This document shows positions 19,961-46,522 of a stretch of DNA of 64,000 nt, piece by piece. The first letter of the stretch is position 1. Every line of letters begins with the position of its first letter. A program made the translations under genes and the position numbers. The notes under the pieces are model-generated. The model did not search any database. It was not told the DNA's origin and saw only the letters and a program-made list of their open reading frames with translations. Origin of the DNA: an uncultured delta proteobacterium (GTDB taxonomy: Bacteria; Desulfobacterota; Binatia; DP-6); assembly GCA_963815115.1 (NCBI GenBank), contig CAWFFN010000007.1, forward strand, positions 96,001 through 160,000, written 5' to 3'.

Positions 19961-21396
19961 TGGAGCTGCGGCGCGTCGCCGAGGTGGTCTGGGAGATTCC
20001 GCGGCACGGTGGCATGCGTGTCCCGGCGCGCGTCTACGCCAGCGAGGCGCAGATGGCGACCTTGCGCGACGACCCGGCGCTCGCGCAGCTCGTCAACGTC
20101 GCGCACCTGCCCGGCATTGTCGGGCACGCGCTCGCGATGCCCGACGTGCACTGGGGCTACGGCTTTCCCATCGGCGGGGTCGCGGCCGTGGACGCCGAGG
20201 AAGGCGTCGTCACGCCCGGCGGCATCGGCTTCGACATCAACTGCGGCGTTCGCCTCCTGGCGACGCGCGTCGCCGCCGCAGACATCGGGCCCGTTCGTGA
20301 CCGCCTCGCCGATCGGCTGTTCGCCTCGGTGCCCTCGGGCGTCGGGAGCGCGGGCGCGGTACGGACGCTGTCGGCGCGCGACACCCGGCGCGTGCTCGAG
20401 CGCGGGGCCGCCTGGGCGGTCGAGGAAGGGTTCGGGCGAGCGAGCGACCTCGAGCACTGCGAGGAGGAAGGCCGGCTGCGAGGAGCGGATCCCGAAGCCG
20501 TGTCCGAGACGGCACGGACGCGGGGGCGCACGCAGATGGGCAGCCTTGGTTCGGGAAACCACTTCCTCGAGGTGCAGCGGGTGGAACGCGTCCACGACGC
20601 GTCCGCGGCGGCGGCGCTCGGGCTGGAGGAAGGGCAGGCGGCCGTGATGATCCACTCCGGATCGCGCGGCCTCGGCTACCAGGTGTGCGACGACGCGCTC
20701 CGCACGATGGGGACGGCGATGCAGCGCCACGGCATCGCGGTGCCCGATCGTCAGCTCGCCTGCGTGCCGCTGCGCTCGGCCGAGGGCCGGACCTATCTCG
20801 GCGCCATGGCGGCAGCAGCCAACTTCGCGTGGGCGAACCGCCAGGTGATGGCGGGACTGGCCGAGCGCACCTTCGCCGAGGTGCTGGGCGCCGGCCCGGC
20901 GACCCTCGGCTTCCGCCTCGTGTACGACGTCTGCCACAACGTGGCCAAGCTCGAGGAGCACGTCGTGGACGGGCGGCTCCGTCGCCTCTGCGTGCATCGC
21001 AAGGGGGCGACGCGCGCGTTCGCGCCCGGCCATCCGGCCCTTCCGCCGGCGCTGCGCCACCTCGGGCAGCCCGTGATCATCCCCGGGGACATGGGACGCT
21101 ACTCCTTCCTCCTGGTCGGGGCCGCGGGCGCGATGGCCGAGACCTTCGGGACGACCTGCCACGGGGCGGGTCGCGTGATGAGCCGGGCGCAAGCCAAGAA
21201 GGCGGGGCGGGGCGTCGATCTGGTGGCGGCCCTGGCGGACCGCGGGGTGACGGTGCGCGCGCGCGCCCTGGCGGGCGTCGCCGAGGAGATGCCGTGGGCC
21301 TACAAGGACGCGGCCGAGGTGGTCGACGTCGTCGTGCGCGCGGGATTGGCCCGGCTGGTGGCGCGGCTGGTCCCGTTGATCGTCATCAAGGGATGA
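19957..21396 (+). CDS. rtcB: RNA-splicing/repair ligase RtcB (archaeal/eukaryotic-like long type)
   Basis: MPDVHWGYGFPIGG, GFDINCGVRL, GSGNHFLEVQ, IHSGSRG, HRKGATRA, CHGAGR. Confidence 0.96.
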   Translation: MMELRRVAEVVWEIPRHGGMRVPARVYASEAQMATLRDDPALAQLVNVAHLPGIVGHALAMPDVHWGYGFPIGGVAAVDAEEGVVTPGGIGFDINCGVRLLATRVAAADIGPVRDRLADRLFASVPSGVGSAGAVRTLSARDTRRVLERGAAWAVEEGFGRASDLEHCEEEGRLRGADPEAVSETARTRGRTQMGSLGSGNHFLEVQRVERVHDASAAAALGLEEGQAAVMIHSGSRGLGYQVCDDALRTMGTAMQRHGIAVPDRQLACVPLRSAEGRTYLGAMAAAANFAWANRQVMAGLAERTFAEVLGAGPATLGFRLVYDVCHNVAKLEEHVVDGRLRRLCVHRKGATRAFAPGHPALPPALRHLGQPVIIPGDMGRYSFLLVGAAGAMAETFGTTCHGAGRVMSRAQAKKAGRGVDLVAALADRGVTVRARALAGVAEEMPWAYKDAAEVVDVVVRAGLARLVARLVPLIVIKG

Positions 21397-22493
21397 GGAT
21401 CGCGGCCCCCGTCCTCGCGGCGCTCTCGCTCGTCGCGACGCTGCTCGTGCTCGAAGGGACGGTACGGTTGCGTCTCTCGAAGGAGCAGTGGGCCCGGCTG
21501 CCGCACGTCGGCGCGAGCTCCGAGACGCAGCGGCGGCTCGCCTGGACGGAGCGGGATCACGCCAGCGACGGCGCGGCGTGGGAGTTCGACGTGCCGGATC
21601 CCCTGCTCGGGTGGCGGCCGCGTTCCGGCGTGCACGCCCGGAGCGCGCATCCCGGCTCGTACGACGTGATGGTGACCACCGACGCGCAGGGGCTGCGAGG
21701 CGCACGCGACGCGACCCGCAAGAAGACGCCCGGCGTGACGCGGATCGCCGTCTTCGGCTGCTCGCAGACCTTTGGCAGCGGGGTGGCGGACGACGAGACC
21801 TTCAGCGCCCGTCTCGAAGCGGGGCTTGCGGGCGTCGAGGTGCTCAACTTCGGCGTGCACGGCTACGGCACCGATCAGATGCTGCTGCGCTACGAGCACG
21901 AGGGAGCGGGCTACGATCCCGACATCATCGTGCTCGCCTTCGCGTACTACCACCTCGACCGCAACGTGACCGGGTTCCGCTTCTACGCCAAGCCGTACTT
22001 CGTGCTGGAGCGCGGCGGCCTGCTGCGCCTGATGGGCGTTCCGGTTCCGCCACCCGACGTCGTGGCGCGCGACGGCCTCCTCGCGCCGCCGTTGCCGCTG
22101 GCCGACCACAGCGTCCTCGCGCGCTGGCTCTGGGGACGCGAGCTGCGGCGCCGGGACGAGGCGCTCTACTACGATGGCACGCCGGCCTGGGACGTCACCC
22201 GCGCGCTCGTCGCGCGCTTCGCCGCCGAGGCGCACGACCGCGGCGCCCGCATGATCCTGCTCAACATCGACGAGGACGCGCCGTGGCTCACCGAGCCGCT
22301 GGTCCGCCTCACCCAGGACACCGGCATCGACTGGGCGGACGCCGCACCCAGACTCGGCGCGCTCCGGGGCCAGGGGGTTCGGCTCCGCCTGCGGGCCGAC
22401 CCGCACTGGAACCCGCAAGGGCATGCGGTGATCGCGGACGTGCTGCGCGAGCGGCTGTGCGCGCCGCCGGCGCTGCCCGGGTGCGGCGGCTAA
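21393..22493 (+). CDS. SGNH/GDSL hydrolase-family membrane-anchored protein
   Basis: N-terminal TM, FGCSQTFG (GDS variant), NFGVHGYGTDQ, DPHWNPQGH. Confidence 0.8.
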   Translation: MRIAAPVLAALSLVATLLVLEGTVRLRLSKEQWARLPHVGASSETQRRLAWTERDHASDGAAWEFDVPDPLLGWRPRSGVHARSAHPGSYDVMVTTDAQGLRGARDATRKKTPGVTRIAVFGCSQTFGSGVADDETFSARLEAGLAGVEVLNFGVHGYGTDQMLLRYEHEGAGYDPDIIVLAFAYYHLDRNVTGFRFYAKPYFVLERGGLLRLMGVPVPPPDVVARDGLLAPPLPLADHSVLARWLWGRELRRRDEALYYDGTPAWDVTRALVARFAAEAHDRGARMILLNIDEDAPWLTEPLVRLTQDTGIDWADAAPRLGALRGQGVRLRLRADPHWNPQGHAVIADVLRERLCAPPALPGCGG

Positions 22494-22519
22494 ACCCGGC
22501 GGCGCCGTGCCAGCCGAGG

Positions 22520-22690
22520 CTGCCCCGCTTCATCGAGCGCGGGTTCCGCGACTTCCTCGGGTGTGGCCAGCTCGAGCGGGGCTTCGCCCGGCTGAGGATC
22601 GCCGGCGCCTCGAACGTCTGTGTCGCTACCTGCTGCGGCCCCTATCGCCCAGGAGCGCCTGACGCTGCGGCCCGACGGCGGGGGCGTCGT
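22520..22690 (+). mobile_element. Internally deleted IS91-like (Y2/HUH) transposase relic
   Basis: LPRFIERGFRDFLGCGQLERGFARLR (Zn-binding N-terminal part) joined directly to DRRRLERLCRYLLRP..IAQERLTLRPDG (C-terminal catalytic-Tyr part). Confidence 0.7.
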
Positions 22691-23466
22691 CACGACGCGT
22701 GGCGGGCGGCGGTGGCCCCCGCCGCGCACTCGCTCGAGTTGAAGCAGGCGTCGGCGCACTGAGCGGCCGTATCGGCGCAGCCGTATTCCGCGGTCTCGAG
22801 CAGCGTGACGCAGACGAGCTTGTCCCCCGAGCACTTCGGGAGCGCCGCCAGCGCGTTGAGCGCGCACCGCCATTGCGGACCGAGGCAGGCGACGTTGCAG
22901 AGCGCACACGCCGGGAGCAGTCCCGCGGCGGTGCCGTCGAGCGGGTCGTTCAGGCATGGGCTCTTGAGCGTCTGCTTCGTGAGGCGCCGGAGCGCGCCCT
23001 TGACGGAGGCTTTCAGCTTGACGGCGGGGGCCTTCTGGCCGTCCGCGAAGACGAGCGTGGCGAGCCCGGCTTTCTGGAACGGCACGACGTCGCGACCGTC
23101 GACGGCGCCGCTGAACGTCACGCCGTCGGTGCTCGCGACGTCGGCCTTCTGCACGCCGCGAAACCCGGAGCCGGCTTCGAGATCGACGGTGAGACCGCCG
23201 GCGCCGGAGGCCGAATCGAGCGTCAGGAGCGCCTGCGGCCCCTTCTTCAGGGTTACAGTGCTCGTCGGCTGAGCCGCCTGGCTTGCCGCGGTCACGAACT
23301 CGAGCGTCACCCCGTTCGCGGGCCGTCCGACCCGCGCCGTGAATTCGGCCGCCACGCGAGTCGAGACGCCCACGCTGCAGTGCGACACGTGAAGAGGCGC
23401 CGCCCCGGCGACGCCTGCGAGACCGATGATCGGGAGAACCGCCAGGAGGATGGGTACGAGTCTCAC
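22690..23466 (-). CDS. Secreted hypothetical protein with Cys-rich C-terminal tail
   Basis: AGGAG RBS + GTG, signal MRLVPILLAVLPIIGLAGVAGA, many Cys in the last ~70 aa. Confidence 0.7.
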   Translation of the reverse strand: MRLVPILLAVLPIIGLAGVAGAAPLHVSHCSVGVSTRVAAEFTARVGRPANGVTLEFVTAASQAAQPTSTVTLKKGPQALLTLDSASGAGGLTVDLEAGSGFRGVQKADVASTDGVTFSGAVDGRDVVPFQKAGLATLVFADGQKAPAVKLKASVKGALRRLTKQTLKSPCLNDPLDGTAAGLLPACALCNVACLGPQWRCALNALAALPKCSGDKLVCVTLLETAEYGCADTAAQCADACFNSSECAAGATAARHAS

Positions 23467-23796
23467 TTAGGAACTCCTACAGTTGGATGCGCGATGGACG
23501 GAGCCCATCCCCGTCCCTGGGGTTGGATACCGCCCTGGCGACCTCGCGGGCAAGGCTTTCTGCCGTCGGGACGCCACACGGGCGTCCGGACGTCTCCGAG
23601 CGCCGTCCGGCCCGACTGCGGCACCTCGAGGACGCACTCCGGGACGCAGCTCGGACCCCGGCTGCCGCGTCTCTTCATTACGCCGAAGTGGCCGTCAGCC
23701 GTCTTATTGACTTCCAACGATCGACTGCTTTCCGAGATGCCGCCGCTGGTAGTCTGGCAGACGGCGTCGGCGGAGGGGTCGAGTGATGAACAGCCA

Positions 23797-23837
23797 TTGA
23801 CAGATTCCTGATCGATCGAACAGAGTTGTCGTTCGAT
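23797..23837 (+). promoter_or_regulatory. Putative promoter with operator-like inverted repeat ATCGAAC-N9-GTTCGAT
   Basis: TTGACA at 23797-23802; inverted repeat 23815-23837 overlaps the hydrolase start codon. Confidence 0.45.
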
Positions 23838-24789
23838 GGCCAACCACCGCGCTCGCTTCGGACCGCACAATCCCGGCGAGACCTACGTCGCCCACGTGAT
23901 CGCGGAGCAGCTGGTCGACCTCGGCGAGATCCAGATGAACTACGCGACCGTGGGCGATGCTGCGTCGCCGGCGCTGCTTCTCATCCCGGGCCAGACCGAG
24001 TCGTGGTGGGGCTACGAGGCGGCGATGCCGCTGCTCGCCGACCGCTTCCAGGTGTTCGCCGTCGATCTCCGGGGCCAGGGCCGCAGCACGCGCACGCCTG
24101 GCCGCTACACGCTCGACAACATGGGCAACGATCTGGTCCGTTTCCTCGACCTCGTGATCGGGCGACCGGCGATCGTGAGCGGCCTGTCCTCGGGCGGCGT
24201 CCTCGCCGCCTGGCTGTCGGCGTACGCCAAGCCCGGTCAGGTGCTCGCGGCGCTCTGCGAGGACCCGCCGCTGTTCGCGTCGGAGGTGCGGCCGGCCGTC
24301 GCTCCCGGCATCCGCCAGTGTATCGGCCCGTTGTTCGACCTCTGGAGCAGCTTCCTGGGCGACCAGTGGTCGATCGGAGCCTGGGACGCGATGCGCGAAG
24401 GATCGGCGACTCGACTGCCGGAGCACCTGCGGTTCATCCCGGTGCCCGACGAGCCGCCCCAGAACTTGAAGGAGTACGACCCCGAGTGGGGCCGGTCGTT
24501 CTGGACCGGGACGGTCGGCGCCGCGTGCGACCACGAGCGGATGCTGCGCAGCGCCAAGGTCCCCTCGGTGCTGCTGACGCACCACATGCGCATCACCGAC
24601 GATGCCAGCGGCTTCCTGTTCGGTGCGATGTCCGACCAGCAGGCCCAGCGGGTGCAGGACCTCCTCACCGGCGCGGGCGTCGACGTGCAGTACCGGTCGT
24701 TCCCCGACGTCGGCCACTCGATGCACGGCGACAGGCCCGACCTCTACGTCGAGACCCTCTTCGACTGGGTCACGAGCATCACGGCGTGA
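23836..24789 (+). CDS. Alpha/beta hydrolase, ZenA-like (zearalenone/resorcylic acid lactone hydrolase family)
   Basis: VDLGEIQMNY, QTESWWGYE, DLRGQGRS, YTLDNMGNDLVRF, GLSSGG nucleophile, FLGDQWSIG, PQNLKEYDPEWGR; these blocks recall Rhodococcus ZenA. Confidence 0.8.
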   Translation: MANHRARFGPHNPGETYVAHVIAEQLVDLGEIQMNYATVGDAASPALLLIPGQTESWWGYEAAMPLLADRFQVFAVDLRGQGRSTRTPGRYTLDNMGNDLVRFLDLVIGRPAIVSGLSSGGVLAAWLSAYAKPGQVLAALCEDPPLFASEVRPAVAPGIRQCIGPLFDLWSSFLGDQWSIGAWDAMREGSATRLPEHLRFIPVPDEPPQNLKEYDPEWGRSFWTGTVGAACDHERMLRSAKVPSVLLTHHMRITDDASGFLFGAMSDQQAQRVQDLLTGAGVDVQYRSFPDVGHSMHGDRPDLYVETLFDWVTSITA

Positions 24790-25739
24790 GCGCATCCCGC
24801 ACGATCGACGTGCACGCCCACTACGTCCCGGCGAGCTACCGGGCGGCGCTGCTGGACACCGGCCACGGCGAACCCGACGGCTTCCCCCGGATCCCGGACT
24901 GGTCCGCCGAGGAGCACGTTGCCGCGATGGACCGGCTCGGAATCGCGACGTCGCTGCTGTCGATCTCGTCACCTGGCGTGCACCTCGCCGACGAACAAGC
25001 GGCGCGGGACCTCGCCCGCGAGGTGAACGAGGCCGGCCGACGAGCCGTCGTCGACCATCCCGGACGGTTCGGCCTGTTCGCCTCGCTCCCCCTGCCCGAC
25101 GTCGATGCGGCCATCGCCGAGATCGCGCACTGCTGCGACCGGCTCGACGTCGCCGGCTTCGCGCTGCTCACCAACATCGGGGGGACGTACCTGGGCGACC
25201 CCGCGTTCCAACCGGTCTTCGGCGAGCTCGACCGGCGCGGCGCCCGGCTGTTCATCCACCCGACCTCGCCGGCGTGCTGGGAGCACACCTCGCTCGGGCG
25301 TCCCCGACCGATGCTCGAGTTCTTCTTCGACACCACCCGTGCCGTGGTCGACCTGGTGCTCAACGGCACCGTCGCCAGGCATCCGGGAGTCGAGTTCATC
25401 ATCCCGCACGCCGGAGCGACGCTGCCGATGGTCGCCGACCGGGTCAGCGTCTTCTCCCAGCTGCTCGGCGTCGACCCCGCGGTGGACGTGCTCCGCGACC
25501 TGGGCCGACTCCACTTCGACCTCGCCGGCTTCCCGGTTCCCCGCCAGCTCGACGCGCTCCTCACGCTCACCACGATCGAGCACCTGCACTACGGGAGCGA
25601 CTATCCCTTCACCCCGGAGTTCGCCGCCGCCATGGCGAGTGAACGACTCGCCGAGCGGGGCGACCCGCCGGGTTCGCTGCTGGCCGCGCTCCGCGCCAAC
25701 ACCGATCGCCTCTTCCCCGCGTTCACTGACCGGCGCTGA
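24786..25739 (+). CDS. Amidohydrolase_2 family protein, 6-methylsalicylate/orsellinate decarboxylase-like
   Basis: IDVHAHY, LSISSPG, FASLPLPD, FIHPT, EFFFDTTRA, PHAGATLP, YGSDYPF; GTGA overlap with upstream gene. Confidence 0.8.
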   Translation: MSASRTIDVHAHYVPASYRAALLDTGHGEPDGFPRIPDWSAEEHVAAMDRLGIATSLLSISSPGVHLADEQAARDLAREVNEAGRRAVVDHPGRFGLFASLPLPDVDAAIAEIAHCCDRLDVAGFALLTNIGGTYLGDPAFQPVFGELDRRGARLFIHPTSPACWEHTSLGRPRPMLEFFFDTTRAVVDLVLNGTVARHPGVEFIIPHAGATLPMVADRVSVFSQLLGVDPAVDVLRDLGRLHFDLAGFPVPRQLDALLTLTTIEHLHYGSDYPFTPEFAAAMASERLAERGDPPGSLLAALRANTDRLFPAFTDRR

Positions 25740-25771
25740 CCAGCGACAGACGACGAAACTCGCCCTGGCGT

Positions 25772-26956
25772 TCAGAACCTCGCGGGACGGTCCGGCGTCA
25801 GGTATTCCGTGATCGCCGTGAACAGCCGCTCGCTGTAGTTCGTCGTGGTGGCCGCCGCCCGCTGCCCTTTCGTGACGGTGAGCGCGACCGAGATCCGTCT
25901 CGACGGCAGATAGGCCTGGATCGCGGTGTAGCCTTGCATCTCGGGGTTCTGAATCTCCCAGGTGTTCACGATCACGATGCCGAGCCCGTAGTAGAGGCTC
26001 TGGCTGAACCCCGGGAGCCCCGCCGTCGTCGGGGCGATGCGCTCGCGCGCGGCCGCCTTGGAGATCAACGCTCCCCTCCCGAACGCCTGCGCCGACTTGA
26101 GCACGTCGCCGATCGTCGACGTCATGATCATGCTCTCGGCGATCGACCAGGAAGGGCTCCAGAAGGTCGAATCCTCGTAGGGACCGCGGTCGGCAGTGTA
26201 CGCGTGCAGAACCGGCGGCGGGATGTCGGGCAGTGAGGAGATCCTCGTGTTGCGCAAGCCGAGCGGGCGAAGGACGCGCTTGCGGAGCAGCTCCGCCACC
26301 GGCTTGCCGGTGACGGCCTCGATCACGTTGCCGAGGATGATGAAGTTCGTGTGGGCGTAGTGAAAGCATGTCCCCGGGTCGCAGATGCGCGGGCGCGCCA
26401 GCGCGATCTCCAGCAGCTCCCGCGTCTGCCACTGGCGGAAGACGTTCGCGTACCAGTCTTTGACCCAGGCGGGGTCCTCCTGGATCCAGTCGGCGTAGCC
26501 GGAGGTCGCGGTGGCGAGCATCCTCAGAGTCACGCGATCGGCGTCGGGGAGGGCGGGAAACCAGGTGGACAGGCGGTCGTCGAGGGACAGCCGTCCGTCG
26601 TCCTGAAGCTGGAGCAGGAGGTCGATGACGTAGGGGATCGCGACCGAGCCGATGCGGAAGTTCATGCGAAGGTTCGCGGGCACCCCGTCCATCGACTCCC
26701 CCGCAGAGACGCGCGCGATCGAACGGTCGCCCAGGCTGACCCGGACGAGGGCCGCGCGCAGGTCGTCGTCCTGGACCGACCGCTCCACGATCGCCCGGAT
26801 CTCGCGGCCCGCGGCGGCGAGGCTCGTACAGCCCGACGCCGTCCGGATTCTCTCGCGCGGACAGGGCGTGACGCCGTCACCCGCGGCCGCAAAGCCGGAC
26901 GCGAGCAGGGCCGCGCAGACCGCTCCGGAAACCGCGAGGCTCCGAGATACCTTCAC
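25772..26956 (-). CDS. Secreted serine hydrolase (beta-lactamase/PBP family)
   Basis: Signal peptide, FRIGSVAI, LSLDD, VTLRMLA, FHYAHTNF; canonical SxxK Lys appears substituted (SVAI). Confidence 0.8.
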   Translation of the reverse strand: MKVSRSLAVSGAVCAALLASGFAAAGDGVTPCPRERIRTASGCTSLAAAGREIRAIVERSVQDDDLRAALVRVSLGDRSIARVSAGESMDGVPANLRMNFRIGSVAIPYVIDLLLQLQDDGRLSLDDRLSTWFPALPDADRVTLRMLATATSGYADWIQEDPAWVKDWYANVFRQWQTRELLEIALARPRICDPGTCFHYAHTNFIILGNVIEAVTGKPVAELLRKRVLRPLGLRNTRISSLPDIPPPVLHAYTADRGPYEDSTFWSPSWSIAESMIMTSTIGDVLKSAQAFGRGALISKAAARERIAPTTAGLPGFSQSLYYGLGIVIVNTWEIQNPEMQGYTAIQAYLPSRRISVALTVTKGQRAAATTTNYSERLFTAITEYLTPDRPARF

Positions 26957-31683: not shown

Positions 31684-34600
31684 TCAGCAGCTGGCCGCGC
31701 CGTCGCCAGCGCGCCGACGGACCACCCGCTCGAGGACCTCGAAGAGCTCCCGCGCCTTGATCGGCTTCGAGACGTATCCGTCCATCCCCGCGGCCAGGCA
31801 GCGCTCGCGATCGCCCATCATCGCATGTGCCGTCATCGCGATGATGGGCACGTGAACCGAGGCATCGGCCGGGAAAGCGGTGGCGGCGCCGTCGCCGCGA
31901 ACGGCTGGCGTCTGGGCGCCGCCGCTCGTCGGTACGGCGAGGTGTTCATCACCCCGGATCTGCGCGGTGGCCTCGAACCCGTCCATCACGGGCATCTGCA
32001 CATCCATCAACACCGCGTCGAACGGCTCGCGCCGAACCGCGGCCAGGGCTTCCAGTCCATTGCTCGCCAGCGCGACCGTGCACCCGTGCTTCTCGAGCAG
32101 CCGGACTGCAAGACGTTGATTCACGATGTTGTCCTCGACGAGCAGGATATGCCTGTGCACCTCCACACCGTGCGGTGCCGCGCCGGCTCGATTCGGCGCC
32201 GCCGGCGGACGGTCAACGCGGTCGCCGGACGCTCGCAGGGTGCGCGCAACGGCATCGAGCAGATCGCTCGGCTTGACCGGCTTCATCAGATGCGCCGCGA
32301 TACCGAGCGCTCTACACCGTGCGCCATCGCCGGCCTGACCGCCGGAGGTCATCATGATGAGCGCCGGTGGGTCGGGCAGGGCGCTCTGCGCAATCCGGGC
32401 GGCAAGCGTGAATCCGTCCATCTCGGGCATCTCCTCGTCGAGCAATACCAGGGCGAAGCCGTGACCGGCCCGTACCGCGCCGTCCAGGGCCTCGAGCGCG
32501 GCGGCGCCACTCGCGACCGCGACGGGGCGCATCCCCCCAGCGCAGCACCGTCTCCTCGAGGATGCGGCGGTTGGTGACGTTGTCGTCGACGACGAGGACC
32601 GGCAGATCGCGCAGCATCGCCGGCGTCCTGATCGCGGGCGCCGCCGCGGCGATCCCGAAGCACGCGGTGAAGCGAAAGCTGCTTCCGTGTCCCACGGCGC
32701 TGTCGAGCTCGATGTCTCCCTCCATCAAGTTGACCAGCCGCCTGGCGATCGTGAGCCCGAGGCCCGTGCCGCCATACTTGCGCGTCGTCGAGCCGTCCGC
32801 CTGCTCGAAGGCCTCGAAGATGCCCCGTTGCTTCTCGGCCGCGACGCCGATCCCCGTATCGCGAACCGTGAAGCGCAACTCGGTCCGCGGGCAGGCGCTC
32901 GGAGGCTCGGATCTGGACAGGCCTGTCCCTGCCGCGGGCGGACGATCACCGGGCGGGCTCGCGCTCGCCTGCTCGACCTCCACGGCCACCTCGCCCTGCG
33001 GCGTGAACTTGATGGCGTTCCCGACGAGATTGACGAGGATCTGCCTGAGGCGCCCCGGGTCGCCCACGAGGTTCTCGGGCACATCGGGCAGGACTCGCCA
33101 GGTGAGCTCCAGCCCCTTCTGATGGGCGCACAACGCCTGAACCTTCATGACGTCGCCGAGGACATTCGGGAGGTTGAACTCGACCGGATCGAGCTCCAGC
33201 TTTCCGGCCTCGATCTTGGAGAAATCGAGTATGTCGTTGATGACCGACATCAACGAGTCGGCCGAGACCTTCACCATCTCCAGGTATTCCCGCTGATCGG
33301 GCTCCAGCGTCGTGTCCAGGGCCAGGTCCGTCATGCCGATGATGCCGTTCATCGGTGTACGGATCTCGTGACTCATGTTGGCGAGAAAGTCGCTCTTGGC
33401 GCGGCTGGCCGCTTCGGCCGTTTCCCTGGCCTCCCGCAGCTGCATCTCCACTCGCTTCCGTTCGGTGATGTCACGGACGATGCCGACCGCGTGCCAGCGG
33501 CCATCGAGGTGGATCGGCGCGAGCGATAGCTCGATCGGTATCTCATCGCCGCCGTTGCGCCGTCCCACGACCTCCCTCGTCTTGCCGATGGCTGCGCCCT
33601 CGCCCGTGAGCCAGAACGCCTCGAGACCCCGCGCCGCCGCCTCCCGGAACGTCGCCGGCGCCACGAGCTCATGGAGATCGCGCCCCAGCACCGCGCCCTC
33701 CGAGTATCCGAAGATCGTTTCCGCCGCGCGGTTCCAGAACGCCACGCGGCCGTCCGCATCCATCATGACGATGCCATCCTGCGCCGACGCGGTGATGGTG
33801 CGGAATCGCTCTTCACTGTCGCGCAGCGCCTGCTCCACGAGCCTGCGCTGGGTGACGTCACGCGCGATCGCCGAAGCGCCCGTGACGACGCCCTCGGTGT
33901 CCCGGACCGGTGACAACTTCAGCGAGACGGCGACCGGGGTGCCGTCCTTGCGACGGCGCGTCGCCTCGTAGTCAGCGATTCGCTGGCCATCCTTCACCCG
34001 TTCGAGAAGGCGGAGCGTCTCCGTCGGGTCGGAGCACAGGAGGGTGGCGACCGGCATGCCGATCGCCTCCTCTGCGGTGTACCCGTAGACGTGCTCGGCG
34101 CCGCGATTCCAGCTGAGGATCGTGCCGTCGAGTGTTTCACTGATGATGGCGTCCTCCGAGGACTCCACGATGGCTGCCAGGAGACGGCGCTCGTCCTCGA
34201 CCCGCTTGAGCTCGGTGATGTCCCGGGCCACCGCGGCGAAGCCGATCGTCCGCCCGTTTTCCACGATGAGCTGGACGTTGTGCCCGAGCCAGAGCTCCGT
34301 GCCGTCCTTGGCGATCGCAGGCACCTCGCAATAGGTCGTCGGGATTCGCTCGACGAATTGCCGCAGATAGAAGCGGCCGATTCGCCGGCGCGAATCCGGT
34401 CGGACGAGGACGAGGAAGTGGATGCCCATCATCTCGCTCTCGCTGTATCGCATGAGGCGCAGGGCGATCGGATTGCAGTAGGTCACGTGACCCGTGTCGT
34501 CGGTCCGATAGATGATGTCGGTCGCGTGTCCGAGTATCTGCTCGTAGCGCGCCGCGCTCGCCGCACTCGTGGTGTGGATGCCGTAACCGGCGAGCAGCGC

Positions 34601-35326
34601 GGCGGCGAGCGCCAGCAGGCCCAGCATCTCGGCCTGGCTCAAACTGTGCTCGCCGAATACCTCCAGCACGTAGGACAGGAGCGCGATGCCGCCGCCGAAC
34701 AGCACCAGGTCCACGACGTCGAGCGGATGGGTCTGCTGCTCGCGATAGTCCGGCAGGTGGCGATACACGAAGTAGACGCCGAGCAGGCCGACCGGAACGT
34801 TGACGTAGAACACGCCGCGCCAATTGAGATAGGAGACGATCAGCCCGCCGGCGACCGGCCCGACCATGGGGCCGATCAGGCCTGGAATGGCGACAAAGCT
34901 CATGACGGGGACGAGATCGGCCTTGTCGTAGGTGCGCGCCAGCGTCATGCGACCGACCGGCATCATCATGGCACCGCCCGCGCCCTGCAGGATGCGGCAG
35001 GCCACCAGCATCTCGAGGCTGGTCGAGAGGCCGCACAGCACCGAGCCCACGGTGAAGAGGCCGATCGCCGTGGCGAACACGCGCCGCGTGCCGAACCGGT
35101 CGGCCATCCAGCCGCTCACCGGCATGAAGACGGCGAGGCTCAGTGTATAGCTCGCCAGCACCGACTTCACGCTGAGCGGCGCCACGTCCATGGCCCGCGC
35201 GATGGCTGGCACCGCGGTGTTGAGGATCGTCGTGTCGAGCGACTGCATGAAGAACGCAACGGCGACCAGCCACGGCAACAGGCGCTTGATGGCATCGTTT
35301 GGCGAAGCGGTGGTTGTCGCGGCCAT
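31684..35326 (-). CDS. Hybrid sensor histidine kinase: half-MFS (DHA2) domain + 3 PAS + HisKA + HATPase + 2 REC; one +1 frameshift in a G6 run at ~32535
   Basis: MQSLDTTILN, GWMADRFGTRR, RILQGAGG, GPMVGPVAGG (MFS); three PAS-PAC; SHEIRTPMNG; NLVGNAIKFT, DTGIG, GGTGLGL; VLVVDDN/LLDEEMP and LLVEDN/LMDVQMP receivers. Confidence 0.85.
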
Positions 35327-35530
35327 CGTCAGTCCGCCGGTCTGAAAGGAGCCTGCCCGTGGGCGTCGAACAGGGCGTCCAGGAATTCCGGGATCAGCGG
35401 CATGCTCCGCGTCCCCTTGACGCAGGGTGGCTCCGGGGCAGCCGGTGCGCACTGAAGCGGGGCCGCACACGCTGCTCGTACTTGGGGACGAGCTGAGGCA
35501 ATACATTGATCCCCAGAGAGGAGATCCTCC

Positions 35531-35899
35531 ATGCCGTATCTCCGTGCAGTGCTCCTTGCGACCATCATCACGATGGGGATGGCTCCTGCGGCACACTCAG
35601 CGACCGATCGGGAGAAGCTCAGCAAGCTCATGAGGGACGCCGCACCGAGATTCGGCAACGTCTTCAGCGCACAGGCCGTCAGCGATGCGTTGCAGAAGTC
35701 GAAGACGGTGTGCGTCTGCTTCGATCCCCAACAGAACGCGGCGCTGGTTGGGTTCATGGTGTTCTTGGGCCCCCGGACAGCTGGCGAGGGCTTCACAGCA
35801 CTGTGCCTGACGCCGGTGTTCACGTCAGATGGTGCCGTGACCGGCGGGACGGGCGCCTGTGCCGAGTTCACCCCCATCCCGGGCAGCAACGCGCCGTGA
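35531..35899 (+). CDS. Small secreted hypothetical protein
   Basis: GAGGAG RBS, signal MPYLRAVLLATIITMGMAPAAHS, 4 Cys. Confidence 0.6.
   Translation: MPYLRAVLLATIITMGMAPAAHSATDREKLSKLMRDAAPRFGNVFSAQAVSDALQKSKTVCVCFDPQQNAALVGFMVFLGPRTAGEGFTALCLTPVFTSDGAVTGGTGACAEFTPIPGSNAP

Positions 35900-43298: not shown

Positions 43299-46518
<3,220 letters not shown>

Positions 46519-46522
<4 letters not shown>

Follow-up and report, generated by a model that had tools for sequence, protein, structure and literature searches.

The 64-kb stretch of contig CAWFFN010000007.1 analysed here (hereafter the window; all positions refer to its full length) has a G+C content of about 71% and contains two overlapping forward-strand genes, which encode a ZenA-like hydrolase and a predicted decarboxylase. 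The first gene (23836..24789, ATG start) encodes P0001, an alpha/beta-hydrolase of 317 amino acids predicted from its open reading frame (ORF), Pfam domains and structure matches to be a resorcylate-type lactonase or esterase. The second gene (24786..25739, GTG start) encodes P0002, also 317 amino acids long, an Amidohydro_2 protein predicted from Pfam, profile and fold comparisons to be a metal-dependent non-oxidative decarboxylase of ortho-hydroxybenzoates of the resorcylate type. According to the ORF ends, the stop of the first gene and the start of the second overlap on the forward strand in the tetranucleotide GTGA (24786..24789), which suggests translational coupling of the two genes. 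The GTG start of P0002 is supported by the agreement in length and coverage among its best 120 relatives, which are mostly 316-318 residues long (range 309-330) and cover 97-100% of the protein. In Pfam, P0001 matches Abhydrolase_6 (1.3e-17) and Abhydrolase_1 (6.5e-16), and P0002 matches Amidohydro_2 (PF04909, 3.9e-23, residues 7-310). These reading frames and families agree with the original prediction, which had described a hydrolase gene overlapping an amidohydrolase_2 gene at GTGA. An Rfam search of positions 21300-26200 gave no credible match.

Comparison with all solved structures places P0001 in the ZenA family. The best match is the zearalenone lactonase of Rhodococcus (8clt, E 7.2e-111, residues 15-315), followed by the Streptomyces coelicoflavus enzyme (8cln, 5e-108), and the best structure outside the family reaches only 2.8e-13. 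P0001 is 56-57% identical to the homologues encoded on Rhodococcus plasmids, and 52-57% identical to the Rhodococcus and Streptomyces plasmid homologues taken together. The resemblance to ZenA noted in the original prediction is therefore real, and the four sequence blocks cited for it (YTLDNMGNDLVRF, AAWLSAYAKPGQ, FLGDQWSIG and PQNLKEYDPEWGR) are all present in P0001, with near-identical blocks in the 8clt alignment. Among 1.84 billion cluster representatives, the full-length 50%-identity ones with a score above E 1e-98 number just four (52-59% identical); below them came fragments and then partial matches about 40% identical. Because close full-length representatives are so few, the ZenA family is compact, with P0001 inside it. 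NCBIfam contains no ZenA-family model, and every match of P0001 in that collection fell far below the cut-off. Search and phylogeny agree that P0001 does not fall among unrelated hydrolases; judged by its sequence, it is a true and new member of the ZenA family, located on a branch apart from the characterised enzymes.

The active site of the Rhodococcus enzyme (ZenARe) can be traced residue by residue in P0001. In the paper on the ZenA structures (PMC10913051), S128 of ZenARe is the nucleophile and D153 and H303 complete the triad, with the acidic residue placed after strand 6. S129 and Q63 form the oxyanion hole, each also hydrogen-bonding the ring hydroxyl, F177 stacks on the beta-resorcylate ring, P155 and F232 are also functional, and L210 and F211 are mobile lip residues (PMC10913051). 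In the 8clt alignment, S128, S129, Q63, D153 and H303 of ZenARe correspond to S118, S119, Q53, D143 and H294 of P0001, and P155, F177, F232 and L210/F211 correspond to P145, F167, F222 and F200/I201. P0001 shares with the ZenA enzymes of Rhodococcus erythropolis (8CLT/U/V) and Streptomyces coelicoflavus (8CLN/O/P/Q), described by Fruhauf et al. 2024 (PMC10913051), the triad with Asp after strand 6, the Ser-Ser nucleophile elbow, a Gln serving as oxyanion residue II and a Phe stacking on the resorcylate ring. P0001 thus combines full-length similarity to ZenA with the Ser-His-Asp triad, the non-canonical oxyanion hole, the cap Phe and the equivalents of F232 and P155. Moreover, its alignment with 8clt is free of gaps across the N-terminal 200 residues, and the comparison suggests that the antiparallel beta-sheet at the periphery, termed the 'flake', is also present.

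These residues are constant across the family. In an alignment of 83 ZenA sequences (the window, 78 genome loci and four plasmid loci, leaving out two loci with frameshifted genes), Q53, S118, D143, P145, F167 and H294 are invariant, and S119 and F222 are kept in 82 of the 83 rows. The two cap-lip positions carry at least 10 different residues each, with ten at position 200. Constant residues at the ring together with a variable lip suggest that the family acts on a constant resorcylate acyl moiety linked to a variable alcohol or lactone moiety; in ZenA, the resorcylic moiety is reported to be bound tightly and the lactone ring loosely (PMC10913051). Gly precedes the oxyanion Gln in P0001, as in 78 of the 83 rows, and Glu does so in Rhodococcus; strict conservation of this Glu is denied by the ZenA authors (PMC10913051). 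P0001 therefore differs from the characterised enzymes in its separate tree branch, in Gly for Glu before the Gln, in its lip residues and in its Binatia-like host. In contrast to the zenA genes of four plasmid loci from cultured actinomycetes, the P0001 gene also shares an operon with an Amidohydro_2 gene. Zearalenone was hydrolysed by all eight soluble ZenA homologues assayed (PMC10913051). The fungal zearalenone lactonase ZHD101 carries out the same reaction as characterised ZenA, but is only 13-18% identical to the bacterial enzymes (PMC10913051) and shows no useful kinship with them.

Three lines of comparison (profile, site residues and fold) place P0002 in the ACMSD-type decarboxylase branch of Amidohydro_2. 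The solved structure nearest to it in sequence is 2f6k, an uncharacterised 'amidohydrolase II' of Lactobacillus plantarum (3.4e-51), followed by 5-carboxyvanillate decarboxylase (1.6e-19) and gamma-resorcylate decarboxylase (8.4e-18). We built a profile (A4) from the alignment of 16 ZenA-linked Amidohydro_2 proteins belonging to two deep clades. Against solved structures it again scored 2f6k best (6e-79), followed by ACMSD (4e-33), gamma-resorcylate decarboxylase (7e-32), LigW (2e-31), uracil-5-carboxylate decarboxylase (3e-30), 2,3-dihydroxybenzoate decarboxylase (about 5e-24) and salicylate decarboxylase (7e-16). The enzymes other than decarboxylases were the LigJ hydratase (4e-19), PtmU3 (2e-12) and the LigY C-C hydrolase (5e-12), the LigJ score falling inside the decarboxylase range of 4e-33 to 7e-16.

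Nine residues of P0002 (D8, H10, H12, H158, R185, H208, R219, D245 and D272) are invariant or nearly so in both deep clades of the profile. Particularly, H10, H12, H158, H208 and D272 are conserved in 15-16 of the 16 ZenA-linked proteins and form an ACMSD-type HxH/H/H/D site. In the alignment with human ACMSD, H10/H12 fall on the HxH motif, H158 on the HP motif, H208 on the catalytic His and D272 on the DYPF motif. From the residue roles in human ACMSD, we take H10, H12, H158 and D272 to be the metal ligands and H208 to be the catalytic residue. An AlphaFold2 model built on the same alignment (mean pLDDT 87.0, pTM 0.89) was compared with the PDB by Foldseek. It matched 2f6k best (TM 0.89, 34% identity) and also 2,6-dihydroxybenzoate decarboxylase (TM 0.80, E 2.7e-18), ACMSD, LigW and the 2,3-dihydroxybenzoate, uracil-5-carboxylate and salicylate decarboxylases, with TM scores of 0.76-0.89 for structures of the family. 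Among the fold matches listed (to rank 48), all named enzymes are decarboxylases; four entries are uncharacterised, and 6jqx is titled 'hydrogenase'.

P0002 shares with the ACMSD-type decarboxylases, namely gamma-resorcylate (2,6-dihydroxybenzoate) decarboxylase (2DVT), LigW (4ICM), ACMSD (4IGN), 2,3-dihydroxybenzoate decarboxylase (6M53) and salicylate decarboxylase (6JQW), the Amidohydro_2 family, the TIM-barrel (TM 0.76-0.82) and the aligned metal and catalytic residues. However, it is only 17-23% identical to them in the fold alignments and is an orthologue of none. The HxH at strand 1 resembles that of ACMSD, whereas gamma-resorcylate decarboxylase has Glu-x-His at this place. The entry nearest by both sequence and fold, 2F6K, gives no hint of the substrate, and a literature search for its code returned nothing relevant. 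Some relatives 80-93% identical to P0002 carry the automatic JGI label '6-methylsalicylate decarboxylase', and the nearest ESM Atlas cluster has the same automatic name (score 0.98); these labels are the basis for a tentative placement of P0002 with the fungal 6-methylsalicylate (PatG/YanB group) or orsellinate decarboxylases. The decarboxylase-type partner proposed in the original prediction is borne out at the level of the branch, and we infer that P0002 is a predicted metal-dependent, non-oxidative aromatic-acid decarboxylase.

The pairing of the two genes was followed across related genomes. A scan with one genome per species yielded at least 502 ZenA relatives, of which the best 80 loci (62-88% identity) were kept. 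These genome loci and four plasmid loci of cultured Rhodococcus and Streptomyces, with flanks of 6 kb, were searched with P0002 by tblastn. In a quick IQ-TREE phylogeny of ZenA, with SH-aLRT support only and the plasmid rows (four) as outgroup, the clade containing the window has 100% support; it comprises 32 loci, to which L034 and L035, with frameshifted zenA genes, add to make 34. The pair is conserved, in two ARRANGEMENTS, with Amidohydro_2 either downstream or upstream of ZenA. Within the clade of the window, 29 of the 34 loci have an Amidohydro_2 gene immediately downstream in the same orientation, and in most of these 29 the second gene starts at, or within about 12 nt of, the end of the first; in one further locus (L027) it lies 1.7 kb away on the opposite strand. 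Among the other 46 genome loci, eight (L036, L039, L047, L054, L066, L071, L074 and L075) have an Amidohydro_2 gene, with 39-44% identity to P0002, directly upstream on the same strand. In two of them, L039 and L074, the stop of Amidohydro_2 and the start of ZenA share 4 nt. A further four of the 46 have an Amidohydro_2 gene 63-70% identical to P0002 at a distance of 4.7-5.8 kb on the opposite strand.

In the ZenA tree, the upstream cases fall at four separate places (Myxococcota, Caulobacteraceae, Gammaproteobacteria and one Acidimicrobiia), and in the Amidohydro_2 tree their partner proteins split into three deep branches, distinct from the clade of the downstream genes. These separate positions indicate that the association between ZenA and Amidohydro_2 arose more than once. 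Altogether, the two genes are adjacent in 37 of the 84 loci. The 42 loci scored 'none' add up to 485 kb without a single P0002-like gene, so the adjacency is not explained by chance encounters with background copies. Both gene trees also concur on the nearest relatives of the window (L001, L018 and L002). The conservation of the pairing, which had been put forward as a check, is thus observed: the pair is conserved and co-inherited, with 29 of 34 clade loci in the downstream order, 8 of 46 loci elsewhere in the upstream order, and congruent trees. In L034 (6001-6953) and L035 (6001-6950), the zenA gene is interrupted: tblastn aligns it only from about residue 45-65 onwards and in one frame, as expected of a frameshift or an assembly error. 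The Amidohydro_2 gene of L035, and that of L009, is likewise in pieces.

The genes around the pair in relatives point to a larger context. We clustered the ORFs of all loci, scanned representatives against Pfam and counted the cluster genes by tblastn. In Acidimicrobiia, a recurrent cluster contains a divergent TetR, ZenA, Amidohydro_2, a two-domain Glyoxalase/BphC extradiol dioxygenase, a FAD_binding_3 monooxygenase of about 530 residues and a FAA_hydrolase-family (FAH) protein, and ends with a P450 or a metallo-beta-lactamase-fold (MBL) protein. The extended form is found at L004 (5293-12048) and also in L005, L007, L014, L021, L024 and others. Among the 34 loci of the clade, the dioxygenase occurs in 22, the monooxygenase in 22, TetR in 19, FAH in 17, P450 in 9 and MBL in 8. 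The nearest solved relative of the dioxygenase is 2,3-dihydroxybiphenyl 1,2-dioxygenase (BphC, 2.6e-50). Those of the monooxygenase are phenol 2-monooxygenase, 3-hydroxybenzoate hydroxylase, 2-hydroxybiphenyl 3-monooxygenase and polyketide hydroxylases, and those of the FAH protein are an HpcE-like protein (2.4e-80) and diketo-acid, acylpyruvate and maleylpyruvate hydrolases. From its gene content, the cluster looks like a complete, undescribed catabolic operon.

The alternative gene order is accompanied by a related set of genes. Two gammaproteobacterial loci (L036, 2070-6960; L047, 1663-6981) and one of Acidimicrobiia (L039, 2168-6954) encode, in this order, an acyl-CoA-dehydrogenase-fold protein, an extradiol dioxygenase, an SDR (in L036 and L047 only), Amidohydro_2 and ZenA. 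The Amidohydro_2 protein of this order is about 42% identical to P0002, and the acyl-CoA-dehydrogenase-fold protein is possibly a flavin monooxygenase. On two Rhodococcus megaplasmids (L081, 751-11165, NZ_CP014942; L083, 1751-12166, NZ_CP089607), ZenA has genes for FAH, a VOC dioxygenase and an acetoacetate-CoA ligase to one side and for an SDR and a thiolase to the other, with a FAD monooxygenase and GntR and HTH regulators nearby and no Amidohydro_2. These genes hint at a zearalenone catabolic cluster, which is not discussed in the ZenA literature consulted. On two Streptomyces plasmids, ZenA stands alone or with a monooxygenase fragment.

Taken together, the gene contexts fit a route from an ester through an o-hydroxy acid, an alkylresorcinol and a hydroxylated alkylresorcinol to ring fission and hydrolysis. 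The hydroxylase, dioxygenase and FAH protein of the relatives would supply the steps required for catabolism via an alkylresorcinol. Known pathways for related compounds include those encoded by the tsd/gra genes of Rhodococcus and Rhizobium (resorcinol and gamma-resorcylate) and the orcinol pathway of Pseudomonas putida. The clusters of the relatives share with them a logic of decarboxylase, flavin hydroxylase, ring-cleavage dioxygenase and polyketo-acid hydrolysis, but differ in having an ester hydrolase in front and a BphC-type extradiol ring cleavage. In the window, unlike in both the relatives' clusters and these pathways, the downstream genes are absent. In Rhodococcus, the decarboxylation is described as slow and spontaneous and the further catabolism of the hydrolysed products as slow (PMC10913051), which matches the missing decarboxylase gene on its plasmids.

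The surroundings of the pair point to an origin elsewhere. The window is a core region of a chromosome, with genes for LepA, signal peptidase, ThrRS, IF-3, L20, PheST, SurE, Pcm, RtcB, pyrimidine enzymes and RecG. Among the best 120 relatives of the host ThrRS, five are named by taxon: four from Candidatus Binatia/Binatus (87, 78, 77 and 77% identity) and one from 'Eisenbacteria' (76%), with no actinobacterial name; Binatia is a class of the candidate phylum Binatota. Both genes of the pair, on the other hand, nest among versions from Acidimicrobiia (Actinomycetota) with 85-88% amino-acid identity. In both trees the window lies in a clade of mostly Acidimicrobiia, with the Binatia-labelled L003, L008 and L012, as well as L017 and L020, just outside. 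The claim that the pair lies 'outside Actinobacteria' therefore holds for the Binatia-like host and probably not for the ancestry of the genes.

Nucleotide homology to the 80 loci is limited to a unit that begins at 23785-23828 and ends at 25741-25754 (25741 in L001), with identities of 89.6% to L001, 88.3% to L018 and 87.2% to L002. Seven flank proteins of the window gave no match in any of the 80 loci, so no orthologous locus from the same lineage was recovered. Six more loci (L001, L003, L008, L009, L011 and L017) have the pair without the cluster genes; L012 has TetR only and L020 has weak matches only. Seven of these eight loci are labelled Binatia or 'delta proteobacterium' or, in the case of L017, carry no phylum label. 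The flanks of the pair-only loci are heterogeneous and give no further functional hint. Since no fetched locus shares the flanks of the window, the pair is probably a horizontally acquired two-gene cassette in a Binatia-like host, and since both genes nest among Acidimicrobiia versions, it looks borrowed from Actinomycetota. The cassette would be the start of an Acidimicrobiia-type operon, namely its promoter and first two genes, that has passed into a Binatia chromosome. The confined homology, the Binatia-like ThrRS and the 85-88% identity of both genes to Acidimicrobiia versions suggest that this cross-phylum transfer was recent.

The region upstream of the pair (23785..23835, forward strand) resembles that of the operons in the relatives, as judged from homology to related loci and an in-register alignment. 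It contains a -35-like TTGACA (23797-23802), an operator-like imperfect palindrome, CTGATCGATCGAACAG (23808-23823), which is the sole site of its kind found by the palindrome search in the window, and a weak -10-like CAGAGT (23821-23826) 9 nt before the ATG, all on the forward strand. With the -10-like hexamer so near the start codon, the leader is perhaps very short or absent; the message may, with low confidence, be leaderless or near-leaderless, and no ribosome-binding site can be seen. In 15 related loci, 12 of them TetR-linked, the nucleotide homology begins at 23785-23797. The 50 bases 5' of the ATG align in register with the TetR-linked promoters (consensus TTGACAGAnnnCTGATCGAnCGAnCAG), and the palindrome is in register with the CTGATC-N4-GAWCAG sites of the TetR-linked loci. 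The motif is found about 10-75 nt upstream of zenA in seven loci. In L001, L008, L017 and L020, by contrast, the upstream region differs and carries a Shine-Dalgarno-like GGAG.

The palindrome of the window overlaps the promoter region, as expected of an operator. The motif is not significant in the window alone, where 27 of 100 shuffled sequences matched it as often or more often, so its weight comes from positional conservation only. No cognate divergent TetR lies next to the pair, and no TetR homologue was detected in the 64-kb window (E 1e-3). A consensus scan found one terminator-like hairpin, inside the second gene and at chance level. The promoter with an operator-like repeat that the original prediction had described is thus partly upheld, by the alignment of palindrome and TTGACA with TetR-linked loci, and not by motif significance, by promoter calling or by the presence of a TetR.

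These observations are best explained, probably although far from certainly, by a bicistronic, translationally coupled hydrolase-decarboxylase module which inactivates a beta-resorcylate-type ester or starts its catabolism. In the first step, the ZenA-like serine hydrolase would open an ester or lactone to a 2,4-dihydroxy-6-alkylbenzoic acid, a reaction shown for homologues and predicted for P0001. Zearalenone would yield 'hydrolysed zearalenone', and a depside would yield an orsellinate-type acid. ACMSD-type decarboxylases act on benzoates with a hydroxyl ortho to the carboxylate, and the ortho-hydroxy acid produced by ZenA therefore suits their substrate type. In the second step, P0002 would hold the carboxylate and ortho-hydroxyl at a divalent metal and remove CO2, leaving a 5-alkylresorcinol. 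This would render the opening irreversible and take the place of the slow spontaneous decarboxylation described for characterised ZenA. In Acidimicrobiia, the TetR-controlled operon would encode the later steps, namely a class-A flavin phenol hydroxylase and a BphC-type extradiol dioxygenase, followed by an FAH-family hydrolase for splitting the ring-fission product, and would provide a full route to central metabolism. The host of the window would have only the first two genes with the ancestral promoter/operator, located between unrelated chromosomal genes; later steps, if any, would be encoded elsewhere, or the cassette would serve detoxification only. A two-step resorcylate module had been put forward in the original prediction. 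The ZenA family, the decarboxylase branch, the conserved pair and the catabolic genes of relatives support it; the decarboxylase is not universal beside ZenA, and the cassette is Actinomycetota-like.

Several observations weigh against this interpretation. The substrate and reaction of both P0001 and P0002 are those we infer from their relatives. P0001 lies off the characterised Rhodococcus/Streptomyces branch (52-57% identity) and has F200/I201 at the lip in place of L210/F211, and with this separate branch and these lip residues zearalenone may not be its substrate. The structure closest to P0002, 2f6k, has no assigned function, P0002 matched no NCBIfam model, and the Amidohydro_2 family also includes the LigJ hydratase and the LigY C-C hydrolase. 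No Amidohydro_2 gene was found in the fetched flanks of 34 of the 46 distant genome loci, in the 6-kb flanks of four of the 34 clade loci (L015, L025, L030 and L033), or in any of the four plasmid loci of cultured Rhodococcus and Streptomyces, the lineages of characterised ZenA. The decarboxylase is thus dispensable for the ZenA family. The ZenA paper (PMC10913051) and a 2025 review (PMC12613374) treat the decarboxylation of hydrolysed zearalenone as spontaneous. In addition, the 64-kb window contains no hydroxylase, dioxygenase, FAH or TetR homologue, a sigma-70 consensus scan called no promoter, and both the taxon labels of metagenome-assembled genomes and the proposed direction of transfer are uncertain.

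The alternative that survives best keeps both enzyme activities and changes the substrate. The pair may act on other ortho-hydroxybenzoate esters, such as those of salicylate, 6-methylsalicylate, 2,3-dihydroxybenzoate or a plant or lichen phenolic, rather than on lactones and depsides, with zearalenone hydrolysis as a side activity; we consider this unlikely, if credible. It would account for the high variability of the cap-lip residues that contact the macrolactone (ten residues at position 200) and for the automatic '6-methylsalicylate decarboxylase' labels on relatives of P0002, and a BphC-type dioxygenase would suit many substituted catechols. The ZenA authors themselves suggest that the enzyme may have evolved for another substrate, namely other resorcylic acid lactones (PMC10913051). 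However, the residues around the beta-resorcylate ring (Q53, S119, F167 and F222) are kept in 82-83 of the 83 rows, and characterised ZenA has a sub-micromolar KM for zearalenone and is induced by zearalenone in Rhodococcus (PMC10913051, PMC12613374).

It is also conceivable, but improbable, that no ester is hydrolysed at all, and that P0001 is a meta-cleavage-product (C-C) hydrolase with P0002 feeding a hydroxybenzoate into a catechol meta-pathway. In relatives, the pair sits with a dioxygenase, a phenol hydroxylase and FAH, the cluster contains no other alpha/beta hydrolase, and meta-pathways usually require a meta-cleavage-product hydrolase, that is, a hydrolase of this kind. Nevertheless, the 60 best matches of P0001 among solved structures include no such enzyme, the HsaD model reaches 22.6 bits where its cut-off is 400, and P0001 has the ZenA-type acidic residue after strand 6 as well as the resorcylate-binding residues. 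The FAH-family protein could carry out C-C hydrolysis, and the window and 6-8 other loci have the pair without any dioxygenase. The assignment of P0001 as a meta-cleavage-product hydrolase was rejected as the principal explanation given the structural matches, the HsaD score and the ZenA residues.

Quite improbable in our view is an identity of P0002 as a hydratase, a lactonase or a C-C hydrolase with a different intermediate as its substrate, such as the side chain or a ring-fission product. The presence of LigJ (4e-19) and LigY (5e-12) among its relatives and the uncharacterised nature of 2f6k would allow it, but the best decarboxylases score far better (4e-33 to 3e-30), the named fold matches listed are all decarboxylases, and the product of the neighbouring enzyme is the o-hydroxy acid used by such decarboxylases. 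That the two genes are adjacent without a shared function is scarcely credible: ZenA does occur without a nearby Amidohydro_2 in 34 of the 46 distant genome loci and all four plasmid loci, but the start/stop overlap, the adjacency of the genes in two orders across 37 of 84 loci, the separate Amidohydro_2 clades, the congruent trees and the lack of background copies in 485 kb contradict it.

A hydrolase-decarboxylase module for resorcylate esters would bear on the biology of ZenA itself. The enzyme is approved as a feed enzyme against zearalenone, and its discoverers call its natural role and substrate speculative (PMC10913051). The word 'amidohydrolase' does not occur in the text of that paper. 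In the searched literature, judged from listings and abstracts and not covering subscription journals or patents, we found no paper on a ZenA-decarboxylase pair, an enzymatic decarboxylase of hydrolysed zearalenone or a downstream bacterial pathway. Searches on bacterial orsellinate and 6-methylsalicylate decarboxylases and on alkylresorcinol catabolism, with the same scope, likewise gave no description of the pairing. The structure and function of ZenA are already known; P0001 is a new member on a separate branch, and its pairing with Amidohydro_2 appears to be undescribed.

The coupling to a decarboxylase, together with the ring-cleavage genes of relatives, offers a testable answer to the question of the natural role of ZenA. 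If the module exists as proposed, the ZenA family would open resorcylate esters for catabolism, and an enzyme, instead of slow spontaneous decay, would remove the resulting acid. The module would also provide a second enzyme that makes the inactivation of zearalenone irreversible, define the substrate class of a family whose hundreds of members come from uncultured soil Acidimicrobiia, Binatia, Myxococcota and Proteobacteria, and exemplify the passage of a two-gene detoxification cassette from one phylum to another. A more far-reaching proposal is plausible, although we would lean slightly against it as a whole. Instead of acting alone as a mycotoxin esterase, ZenA would be the entry enzyme of a widespread undescribed pathway for fungal, lichen or plant resorcylic-acid esters, comprising decarboxylase, flavin hydroxylase, BphC-type extradiol dioxygenase and FAH under TetR control, whose first two genes form a self-contained detoxification cassette that crossed from Acidimicrobiia to Binatia, and P0002 would be the first dedicated decarboxylase of hydrolysed zearalenone or alkyl-resorcylates.

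Several other genes of the window deserve mention. Divergent from the pair, 22690-23466 on the reverse strand encodes a protein of 258 residues with a signal-peptide-like N-terminus and a Cys-rich C-terminus, which has no Pfam domain and occurs in no related locus. Convergent with the pair, a 452-residue serine hydrolase of the beta-lactamase family (PF00144; 25772-27130, reverse strand) ends 32 nt past it, and is probably unrelated because it is not conserved beside the pair elsewhere. Further upstream, 21440-22493 on the forward strand is the 3' part of a long ORF whose product has an N-terminal membrane segment and SGNH/GDSL-like motifs, with no Pfam match under the boundaries tried. On the reverse strand, 32312-35596 encodes an unusual fusion of 1094 residues, in which an MFS_1 transporter is joined to three PAS domains and a HisKA/HATPase_c kinase, with a response regulator adjoining at 31684-32532. 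Finally, the large subunit of carbamoyl-phosphate synthase (43299-46522, forward strand) appears as two overlapping ORFs, 43299-44765 and 44741-46522, which may reflect a frameshift or a sequencing error.

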